Positions 45,001 through 48,000 of a DNA stretch of 64,000 nt are shown in pieces. The position numbers are program-made. The DNA lies in assembly GCA_963727895.1 (NCBI GenBank), contig CAVSHT010000004.1:128001-192000 (forward strand), read 5' to 3'. The stretch is from an uncultured Methanosarcinaceae archaeon. Its GTDB lineage: Archaea > Halobacteriota > Methanosarcinia > Methanosarcinales > Methanosarcinaceae. Position 1 is the first letter of the stretch. Every line of letters begins with the position of its first letter.

Positions 45001-48000
45001 AATTTATAATATTGCTATGTGCTGGAGTTGGGAAATCGAGATGGGGTATCACCAAAGTAAAAGAATCTCCTTGAGGTTGCTGATCTTTCTTCGAACCTTT
45101 GCTTGGGGGAGCATAACTTCGGGAGACTGTATTGGGGGATACAGTAGCTACAGCACTTCTGGGCTTCTTCTTGCATTACATCTTTAATTTGACATAAGTT
45201 GTCAATTTATATAGTGATTCCTTACAAAAACACTTTCTGTCGGCATAGAATTTTTTGGAAAAATGAAACTATCAAAAATCAAAGAATGTAGTCTATAAAT
45301 TACAGTTGTAACAAAATATAACCATGTGGCTGATTTATTCATCATAATATTTATGTTTCTGTCAAATTAGGGTTTCATATTCAAGACTCTGTATCAAATT
45401 TAAAAATGAAAATTCAAGGATTTTATTCATGAAATATCTGAAAATATGTCCAAAATGAAATGCTAACCTGAAATTGCATTCAGATGGTGAGACTCAGTGT
45501 GATATTTGCAGTTACTGGACAAAAGTAGGTACAACAAAACTTGATCCAATTATTTTACGGATGAGGAGTTTGCATGAAGAATACCTAGATTTTTGATATC
45601 TTCTGGTCGTCATTGATTTTGTGAATGTTCACCACGGACTTTTTTTAACTGGTAAATACTGGATCTACTCAGCCCTGTCTTTTTTGTGATCTCAGTTTGT
45701 AGCATATCTCTATCAACATATAGCATGAAAAGTTTAAGTTTTTTAATAGATTTCAAATCCAATCCGGTTTCTTCAATCTTCGTACCGTTCAAAACCTCTC
45801 GATAAGCATCGGCTACGCTCATCACCTTAAAATTCCCCACTCAGTAAGTCTCTTTTCAATATCTTTCATTTCATAATCTGTAAAACTTAAACTCTGATAG
45901 TGCCTTAATGACGTTACTGGGTCGTGTCCCTGTCTACTGTAAATCTCAATTTCCGGTATTCCAGCTTTAAGCATCCATGACTCTATTGTTTTCCTGGGAG
46001 TCTTCGGGCCGACTTTCGGGCTTATATCTGCTTTCTCAGACCACCTGCTAAGGTTATCCCACCAACTTGTACGATCTGGAGGTCTTCTACCTTCCTGAAA
46101 TGCCTTAATTAGATATGGAAAAGTAGTGGGAAGTTTGTCAATAGTGCGCTTTGGTGCTTTCTGTTTAACCTTCTTCTGAGCTTCCTTTGGGAGTATAATT
46201 TGATTCCTGCTCTCAATGTACCATGATGGATTATAATATAATCTTTGTAATTCGACATAGCGAAGTCCCGTAATTGTGTTAAGTTCAAAAATAAGCTTAA
46301 ACTTTGCAGGTATCGCCTTAACAAATCGATCATACTCTTCGACAGTTAACACTTTTAGTGCCGTCTGCTGTTATTAATCCATTTTCTATAAAAATCCCTT
46401 CAAAAAATAGTATACCAACGTTCTATAAATACGTTGGTTTTTATACTTTGTTTTCTAACCCAGTATTAAAAAGATATTTAATTTTTACTCGTTGCTGCCA
46501 TTTTTGCTCTGGCACCATAATCAGAAATACGAACTTTCGAAGTTAAAAACGTTCATATATCAAAAAAGTACAAAGTACGTATACTTTCTTCTTTGGGTAC
46601 TGTGTTGATGAGGTTTAATCTCTTTATAGAGATCACCAAATGCCGAAAATTTATCCAAGACCCCATAGACTACATGTACTCTACTCTTCGAATAGGGCTA
46701 AGTTCCAACTGCGAATAAAATCTACTAAAGATCTATAACACCTAATGGCGATTATATATATGAACATTGAGCAGAAAAAAATAATAGAAAAATCGATTTT
46801 ATTTAGTGTCATATTTATTGTCTCAACTATATTTATATACTACATTTTTTTTTGCACAATTTGTGCCAACTTCTTATTCTCATACAGTGGAATATGCAAA
46901 TGGAACAAATGGAACAAATGTAACAACGTATGTTGACTCCGCAACAGATTTATATGAAAATATTTTTGTCCTGGTTTCAGGCATCATCGGTTGTGCTTTA
47001 GGAATTATATCTACTAGAATAATTAAATGACTGATTGTACTAAACTCCCAATTGACTTAAGTGATCTATAACTGTCATAGTCTTTTTTTCAAAAAGACTT
47101 ATATTTTCCATTTAGTAACACCGGTTCCGTTGCAAAAAATCTCAGAATAAGCATGTAAATCCATAATCAATAACCAAAAGTACAAATATTCAAAAAGATG
47201 TGTCAATATTATAGAACTATTCCAAATAATTGATTAATATATTTAGCTTCATTAAAGCCAGAGTAATTTAGGTTTTTGATTTGTCCTTTTTTAATCATAT
47301 TCATAGCTTCAATTCCTTTTAAAGTCTTAATAGCTGTGTTAAAAGACTGAAATCCTAACATTGGATTAACTATTCGTTTAATGGATCTATGATCTTGTTC
47401 TATAATGTTATTCAAATACTTGATTTGTCGAATGCCTACGTTTATAGGTAGTATTTTATCATTTTTCAGTTTATCTATAGCAGGTGGATAAGCTGGATTT
47501 TTATCAACTGTGATTACTCTTGGAATTTGATTATGATTAGAATTCAAAGCTTTCTTAAAGAAACGTTTTGCTGCTTTTTGATCTCGTTTTGCACTTAACA
47601 TGAAATCAATTGTATCTCCATTTGAGTCAACTGCTCGGTAAAAATATTTCCATTTACCTTTAACTCTGATGTAAGTTTCATCAACTCTCCAAGAGTCGTT
47701 TGTTGGTCTTAAATGCCTTCTTACCTTCTTTTCGATTTCAGGAGAGTATTGATGTACCCATCTCATAATATGGTTGTATGGTTGACTATTACTCCCCTTT
47801 CTGCCATCATTTCCTCTAAATTTCTATAACTTACTGGATATTTTAGGTACCATCTGACGTTTAATAAAATGATTTCTCCTTCGTAATGTTTCCACTTAAA
47901 GGAATTAGATAGCATATTATCGTTCTATTGATTTTCTCCTTATTCAATTGAATCCTTATTATGATTTTTTGCAACAGAACCAAACAATATCTCTCCAGAT

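Follow-up and report, generated by a model that had tools for sequence, protein, structure and literature searches.

The window analysed here (64,000 nucleotides; C4:128001–192000) belongs to an uncultured Methanosarcinaceae genome of 3.67 Mb in 19 contigs (84% complete), which its relatives and plasmid matches place in Methanosarcina. Its minus strand carries a gene for a tyrosine recombinase with a crossover core and a second subsite upstream (Table 1), so that the inverted-repeat site described in the earlier note beside a ~190-aa recombinase gene is real; the open frame from 46352 (176 aa) matches PF00589 with an E value of 1.3e-7. The start codon of the family is the ATA at 46389 rather than the ATG at 46380, ATA replacing the ATG of other copies in the six close relatives with a complete start region. 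Relative to homologues of 95–98% identity the frame is disrupted by an extra A near 46353, which bears out the one-base frameshift reported previously. Two unrelated public runs contain the same locus without this base, and a contig of one of them crosses the window core with its far-side flank unchanged. Since both runs also disagree jointly with the window at other single-base indels and several genes are split in this assembly, the frameshift may have arisen recently by mutation or may be an error of assembly. Seven copies of the window's clade gave pS values of 0.06–0.23 vs pN values of 0.005–0.019, so that this clade is under purifying selection. RNA contigs overlap parts of the gene, an overlap that is not proof of transcription.

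Table 1. Features of the recombinase locus, and recombinase remnants, in the window (positions count from the first letter of the window).
Feature	Position	Strand	Remarks
Catalytic-domain-only tyrosine recombinase gene	45822..46389	−	ATA start codon, 188 codons in relatives; belongs to the TACCAAC-specific clade
Small HTH ORF	45610..45840	−	Overlaps recombinase stop; weak HTH_28 and AlpA matches below cut-off
Subsite II	46413..46439	−	27-bp inverted repeat, TACCAAC-type arms, 24 bp before start codon
Gene-side flank, core to subsite II	46440..46527	−	Conserved among close relatives
Crossover core	46528..46557	−	30 bp long (usual length 29 bp), with one arm mismatch
IS6-family element	47123..47981	−	570 bp past core; context, membership not implied
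Internally deleted TAGCAAC-type copy	21663..21862 (upper coordinate approximate)	−	Degenerate core, subsite II, last 26 codons
Subsite II of deleted TAGCAAC-type copy	21748–21775	−	
Second recombinase remnant	12963..13046	−	Last 28 codons

The HTH ORF behind the recombinase stop accompanies only some copies of the gene. The remaining recombinase copies found in this genome are fragments only, and no intact TACGAAC-type gene was present among the recombinase matches of the 84% complete assembly, in which no serine resolvase was found either. In seven remnants (the two of Table 1 together with C4:58748, C4:92171, C5:201024, C14:42968 and C17:13289) the last ~30 codons alone survive of the gene, with the core and subsite II kept in at least four, which indicates that one internal deletion has spread.

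A profile search returned 264 clusters at E ≤ 1e-10, and the full-length ones listed were mostly 180–230 aa, so that a length of ~190 aa is native rather than the result of truncation. Among 95 sequences R43 (R41 region), K73, R132, H155 and Y164 show little or no variation and K129 is invariant among 17, while the first histidine of HxxR is a lysine in this family; the catalytic R-K-(H/K)xxR-H/W-Y set and the fold of tyrosine recombinases are thus present. A structure model built from 95 rows (pLDDT 92), which superseded an earlier 17-row fold (pLDDT 68), found its best matches in the catalytic domains of XerH, Tn1549 Int and XerA. The core-binding domain is absent from this ~190-aa family, the model comprising the catalytic fold alone, and the enzyme as modelled is a full-length, catalytic-domain-only tyrosine recombinase. 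It scored 18.6 against the XerA model (cut-off 220), and no match to the IntI family appeared in an NCBIfam scan of four proteins. Homologues were detected in 54 of 59 genomes of the genus and, at a stricter threshold, in 39 of 201 genomes of the order; INPHARED phages gave no match.

The general layout comprises a 29-bp core, then a 27-bp subsite, then the recombinase gene. A position profile of 100 cores resolved two inverted arms around an asymmetric spacer, and the core can be oriented, with the spacer opening with T and TA standing at positions 17–18. Subsite II is a candidate autoregulatory or accessory binding site. Arms occur in four variants (TACGAAC, TACCAAC, TAGCAAC and TAGCTAC), and many orphan cores retain subsite II and remnants of the gene start. 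Where subsite II lies 48–62 bp from the core, the gene-side arm was of the subsite's type in all 42 typed cases and the far arm differed in 9 of 44. Three exceptions have a more distant subsite: the loci of the window, L006 and L009 combine a TACGAAC-type gene-side arm with a TACCAAC-type subsite. Hybrids of two arm types made up 35 of 117 strictly typed cores. Arm type also clusters on the protein tree (a minimum of 12 changes vs 22.8 after shuffling), with the labels assigned by eye and near-copies inflating the clustering signal. The helix before KxxR tracks the arms, WWD going with TACCAAC, WFE with TACGAAC, WNR with TAGCAAC and, in two separate branches of the tree, WNK with TA(G/A)CTAC; a strict helix-to-base code is ruled out by L251 and L252, whose proteins are identical and whose sites differ.

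Other features were observed around the cores. About 11 of 126 TACGAAC cores have a second 29-bp palindrome of the plasmid-clade type 36–37 bp away on the far side (e.g. C14:56127, L125, L113 and L177), a far-side flank motif is common to 60 of the 126, and cores of different enzymes seem to stack. Three metagenome contigs (L204:955, L219:2046 and L221:1491) contain head-to-tail core pairs only 6 bp apart, and in L025 the end of a CRISPR-like repeat array lies ~280 bp ahead of the gene, which encodes a 59% homologue.

A search of this genome for cores with a 9-bp spacer and at most one mismatch returned 14, vs none in five shuffles. Scanning with a profile trained on 151 cores from other sources and genomes recovered 33 cores at ≥ 12 bits (none in one shuffle) and 38 at 10 bits (one in the shuffle), the window's own 30-bp core not being counted among the 33. 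The genome holds about 35 cores, and the 36 loci reported before are about right. Eleven of the 33 lie on C14 and C17, which had been called plasmid contigs; their genes are indeed plasmid-like (Cdc6, a TraG/VirB4-like ATPase and a primase), but no terminal overlap was found for either contig. At least one core occurs in 33 of 59 genus genomes, with 0 to 19 per genome vs 0 to 2 for the reversed pattern; the system is both genuine and common across the genus. Of 64 loci, 28 were omitted from the pooled counts as non-methanogen matches. The Bacteroides matches of the all-genome scan were rejected as an unrelated TACGTAC repeat; a multi-copy palindromic TACGTACTTT repeat with half-copies nearby was seen in Bacteroides at L104, L110, L116, L118, L121, L124, L129, L143, L153, L161 and L166. 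Short contigs in bacterial bins (L111, L123, L140, L139 and L136) have cores and flanks of the Methanosarcina type, for which mis-binning is likelier than transfer.

Similarity of the window locus to its relatives stops inside the core. As the earlier note held, duplications end at the sites more often than expected by chance: 11 of 28 cores in this genome have the end of a low-copy duplication within 60 bp (local control over 2000 draws: mean 2.4, maximum 8), and for 6 of 28 the distance is at most 5 bp (control 0.74), although these breakpoints are not independent, the 11 cores falling in about five duplication families, and 17 of the 28 have no duplication end. In a pooled set of 214 distinct cores from genomes and metagenome contigs we obtained 36 clusters with a shared half-site, 27 of which had at least two different partners, and the window's gene side is joined to seven different partners (eight copies). 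Copies with a common gene side showed background identity at core positions 8 and 14–16 and high identity from position 19 (16 clusters), which sets the exchange window at about core positions 9–18 with a free middle. Position 8 differs in four of the five far-side clusters, five clusters being too few to place the other border. The middle of the spacer varies between joined partners, for which repeated events may be another explanation. Site-specific exchange inside the core is supported. No reciprocal quartet was found among the 214 pooled sites, nor a joint at the core in contigs of four public runs, in which rare circles are invisible. The right arm of a core equalled the left arm of the next in 13 of 25 pairs (permutation p = 0.05), and the arm-chain rule that this might suggest was set aside as weak.

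A second junction family, TTAACGA-N5-7-TTATCGA, lies ~180 bp inside the right end of IS6 elements and combines one left flank with three right-flank types and a variable middle; it forms the far end of a four-copy 636-bp segment. Junctions of this type occur at C3:5731, C4:9286, C4:86132 (contig position), C5:200695, C14:42639, C14:57967, C17:16251, C17:18462 and C17:26579, the full pattern being present in 1 of 59 genomes and right halves in others. Another duplicated segment opens at a core (C5:355199 and C14:51459, with further copies at C3:50159 and C3:99740) and contains a gene that we take to resemble the archaeal chromatin protein MC1.

Direct tandem cassette rows, an integron feature, are present here. 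Using an orientation model trained on subsite position alone (53 of 57 correct, leave-one-out), neighbouring cores within 6 kb and with no IS6 end between them were direct in 27 families and inverted in 5 (p = 1e-4), vs 7 direct and 8 inverted where an IS6 end intervened (Fisher p = 0.013), p values that are overstated because neighbouring pairs have sites in common; homologous segments were collapsed and 11 of 58 segment families dropped as unsure. An earlier count with orientation from the spacer only had given 19 direct, and 8 and 5 inverted (not significant). Segments between direct cores range from 35 bp to 5 kb and encode Fic, VapBC, ParDE, HSP20 and DUF5677 proteins. A Fic segment of 1,237 bp is 95% identical, core to core, in L172 and the metagenome contig L212; both copies have TAGCTAC inner arms, their outer arms are G/G vs G/C and their outer flanks are unrelated, the product expected of a TAGCTAC circle entering a foreign core. 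In four further Fic copies the upstream core is gone, three of them keeping a whole or partial downstream arm with other partners. The VapBC unit found no support as a mobile cassette (a core was nearby in none of 14 VapBC homologues), nor did a 486-bp segment whose metagenome match runs from one core to an end without a core. One 700-bp piece of a row of five cores in G046 is repeated, from a core onwards, in another genome; no segment of the row is repeated whole. Given the Fic copies without an upstream core and the VapBC homologues without cores, cassette mobility is shown once, in the Fic unit, and not as a rule. The module exchange by site-specific recombination claimed earlier consequently stands as exchange inside the core and as one cassette in two contexts.

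Homologues of the recombinase were also found on autonomous and integrated elements. Each of five named plasmids of the M. barkeri group encodes one 45–50% homologue, and all three plasmids examined have a two-subsite site with other arms before the gene, together with annotated ParA and AAA ATPase genes; the assertion that ~50% homologues have no paired site was therefore mistaken, the sites of these ~45–50% homologues being identified partly by eye. Eleven IMG/VR loci encode 73–78% homologues and are tailed viruses by their terminase, head or tail genes; of the six loci annotated, four have the site between the tail genes and the head genes. The five virus records searched whole, only one of them complete, each contained one core and no second PF00589 gene, and the complete record (72.7 kb) includes a Cdc6 gene with 68% identity to its counterpart on a named M. 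barkeri plasmid. The tailed archaeal virus of record G232 encodes ribosomal protein S19e (L260:13827–14228) in addition to a VirB4/TraG-like ATPase and Cdc6. A 16-kb element of G012, flanked by tRNA-Thr att repeats, has the core at its middle, and in G013 and G016 a separate full-length integrase lies close by; no att repeats were found in the stretches of G013, G016 and G040, so that one of the four elements is informative. One internal site per replicon beside its own enzyme suggests the anatomy of a multimer-resolution system.

We favour, as rather probable, a reading in which this minimal recombinase family performs Cre/lox-like multimer resolution and its cross-reacting cores build direct rows of cassettes. 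The ~190-aa enzymes would serve plasmids, tailed viruses and tRNA-integrated elements of Methanosarcina as a multimer-resolution system, each replicon having one putative res locus before the gene, whose anatomy, a 29-bp core followed by a 27-bp subsite across the promoter region, was observed directly. Because the four specificity variants have most arm bases in common and the middle of the spacer is free, the cores of different variants would be able to recombine with one another; hybrid products of such events are present, and the enzyme would be their probable author. Each event would either fuse a circle into a resident core or excise the DNA between two direct cores, and, as events repeat, hybrid cores would come to stand head to tail in rows, with segments of 35 bp to 5 kb between them. 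Some segments, such as the Fic unit (one case, two contexts), may then move as discrete cassettes, and later IS6 rearrangements, to which the orientation counts point, would scramble the rows. The caveat in the earlier note, that the cores could be resolution sites which elements left behind as they integrated again and again, has the better support as an account of their origin in view of the anatomy of the plasmids, the viruses and G012, and is compatible with cassettes since the same cross-reaction yields them. Against the favoured mechanism stand the lopsided sharing of half-sites (16 gene-side vs 5 far-side clusters), which simple circle insertion does not predict, and the fact that, of the segments tested, a single one was found with a core at either end in two contexts; differences in the spacer between partners would, moreover, block an exchange of the Cre type. 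A more ambitious proposal, which we regard as tentative and on balance doubtful, is an archaeal cassette platform analogous to integrons and under selection, in which one-domain recombinases with a readable helix-to-base code would insert non-replicating gene cassettes, and excise them, at double-stranded lox-like cores with no need for spacer identity, the carriers would be the first recognisable P1-like phage-plasmids of methanogens and the system would be a main route of accessory-gene turnover in Methanosarcina.

Were the enzyme instead an integrase, the core would be attP, the resident cores attB and the rows tandem integrations, with the AlpA-like HTH protein setting the direction. The enzyme is the sole tyrosine recombinase in all five virus records searched, gene-side flanks are shared three times as often as far-side flanks, like the end of an element, a coupled HTH ORF follows some copies, and in two genomes the gene module stands at the same chromosomal locus behind different cargo. 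We nevertheless consider an integrase unlikely, as the core is internal to an element bounded by tRNA att repeats, separate full-length integrases lie near the gene in two more elements, the gene is present on autonomous ParA/Cdc6 plasmids, insertion at the viral core would divide the virion gene cluster and the HTH matches are below cut-off; no element end (attL or attR) was found at the core among G012, G013, G016 and G040, of which the informative one, G012, ends at its tRNA-Thr repeats. IS6 ends are abundant in the islands (307 matches), and at 28 of about 210 sites an IS6-type end lies on the far side of the core and faces it from within 200 bp, vs 0–2 per 100-bp bin beyond 300 bp. IS6 elements form cointegrates and have no known resolvase (PMC7986276). 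That the enzyme resolves cointegrates from IS6-type replicative transposition, in the manner of TnpI in Tn4430, the cores being internal res sites of IS6-ended transposons, nonetheless seems to us quite improbable: viral loci, with one exception, have no IS6 ends near the gene, and no core-bearing stretch with facing ends and an 8-bp target duplication was found, a weak test given that only 4 of 71 plain IS6 copies or 150-bp miniature elements (MITE) have matching 8-bp duplications, a scarcity that may itself be a sign of heavy IS6-driven rearrangement.

The label of a pdif-like system, under which the locus was originally reported, implies modules between inverted sites that move by two crossovers. 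Sites are indeed numerous on plasmid-like contigs and on chromosomes, the recombinase gene stands between two inverted cores in four related copies, and the Fic, VapBC and ParDE cargo resembles that of dif modules. Neighbouring cores are, however, direct by 27 to 5, the single cassette that is proven lies between direct cores, all five copies of the inverted gene module retain an identical type of outer flank on one side and the arms follow the element's own recombinase rather than a host Xer, so that this explanation is largely refuted and very improbable. Hardly more can be said for passive relics or artefacts, i.e. palindromes in decayed islands whose junctions arose from IS6 deletions, microhomology or mis-joins, to which we also assign a very small probability. 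The density of IS6 ends in the islands, the 17 cores without a duplication end and the split genes of the assembly are what such an origin would leave, but the hybrid arms have a polarity matched to the subsite, the pattern repeats in complete genomes, metagenomes and viruses, and the window's own junction is reproduced by an independent contig.

Among known systems, Cre/loxP likewise combines a recombinase with one adjacent palindromic site of asymmetric spacer on an autonomous virus- or plasmid-like replicon, the role of Cre in the phage-plasmid P1 being outlined in PMC8138268. The present family differs in having no core-binding domain, a second subsite before the gene, several cross-reacting specificities, joined partners with different spacers and tens of orphan cores per genome. 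The pdif modules of Acinetobacter, which depend on XerC/XerD, share the many plasmid and chromosomal sites, the accessory cargo and the recurrence of one unit in different contexts (PMC6449649), whereas here a single element-encoded enzyme replaces the host XerCD, the core is a symmetric 29 bp and neighbours are direct. With integrons the system has in common direct-repeat rows, cassettes of one or two genes and toxin–antitoxin pairs near a tyrosine recombinase; it has no IntI match, and its cassette genes point either way. Integron attC sites are long hairpins, in contrast to the short palindromes of fixed length found here, although such a core might itself adopt a hairpin fold. TnpI of Tn4430 is a tyrosine resolvase with core and accessory sites before its gene, an arrangement similar to the core and second subsite of this family, and Int of Tn1549, the second-best fold match to the recombinase model, acts at a T-rich/A-rich crossover with free central bases. 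In contrast to Tn4430 and Tn916–Tn1549, no transposon ends with a target duplication were found here, the enzyme has no arm-binding domain and both arms are sequence-specific. SsrA of the Methanosarcina acetivorans plasmid pC2A is a plasmid tyrosine recombinase for which multimer resolution has been suggested (PMC9569500); by its description it differs from this family in a gene region of ~970 bp and an inverted repeat after the gene. By analogy the system seems most like Cre/loxP on a phage-plasmid, with products resembling integron rows and cargo resembling that of dif modules, and it is a member of none of these classes, having no core-binding domain, no IntI and no inverted Xer sites.

Full-text literature searches, whose coverage ended at subscription papers and supplements, returned no account of this recombinase family or its site and no resolution site or site-specific cassette system of a methanogen plasmid or virus; supplementary family tables outside that coverage (PMC8371274 and PMC8138268) may include these proteins. 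The system is apparently a hitherto undescribed way for Methanosarcina to reshuffle its accessory DNA. With the enzyme, the exact site, the crossover window and natural products in hand, it lends itself to direct tests in a genus whose genetic tools are good. An enzyme of ~190 aa that has no core-binding domain and comes in natural specificity variants is relevant to how DNA is read by such recombinases, and the family could give small orthogonal recombinases for archaeal engineering. For the organisms themselves, it supplies a mechanism by which the mosaic, AT-rich islands in genomes of Methanosarcina could have formed.
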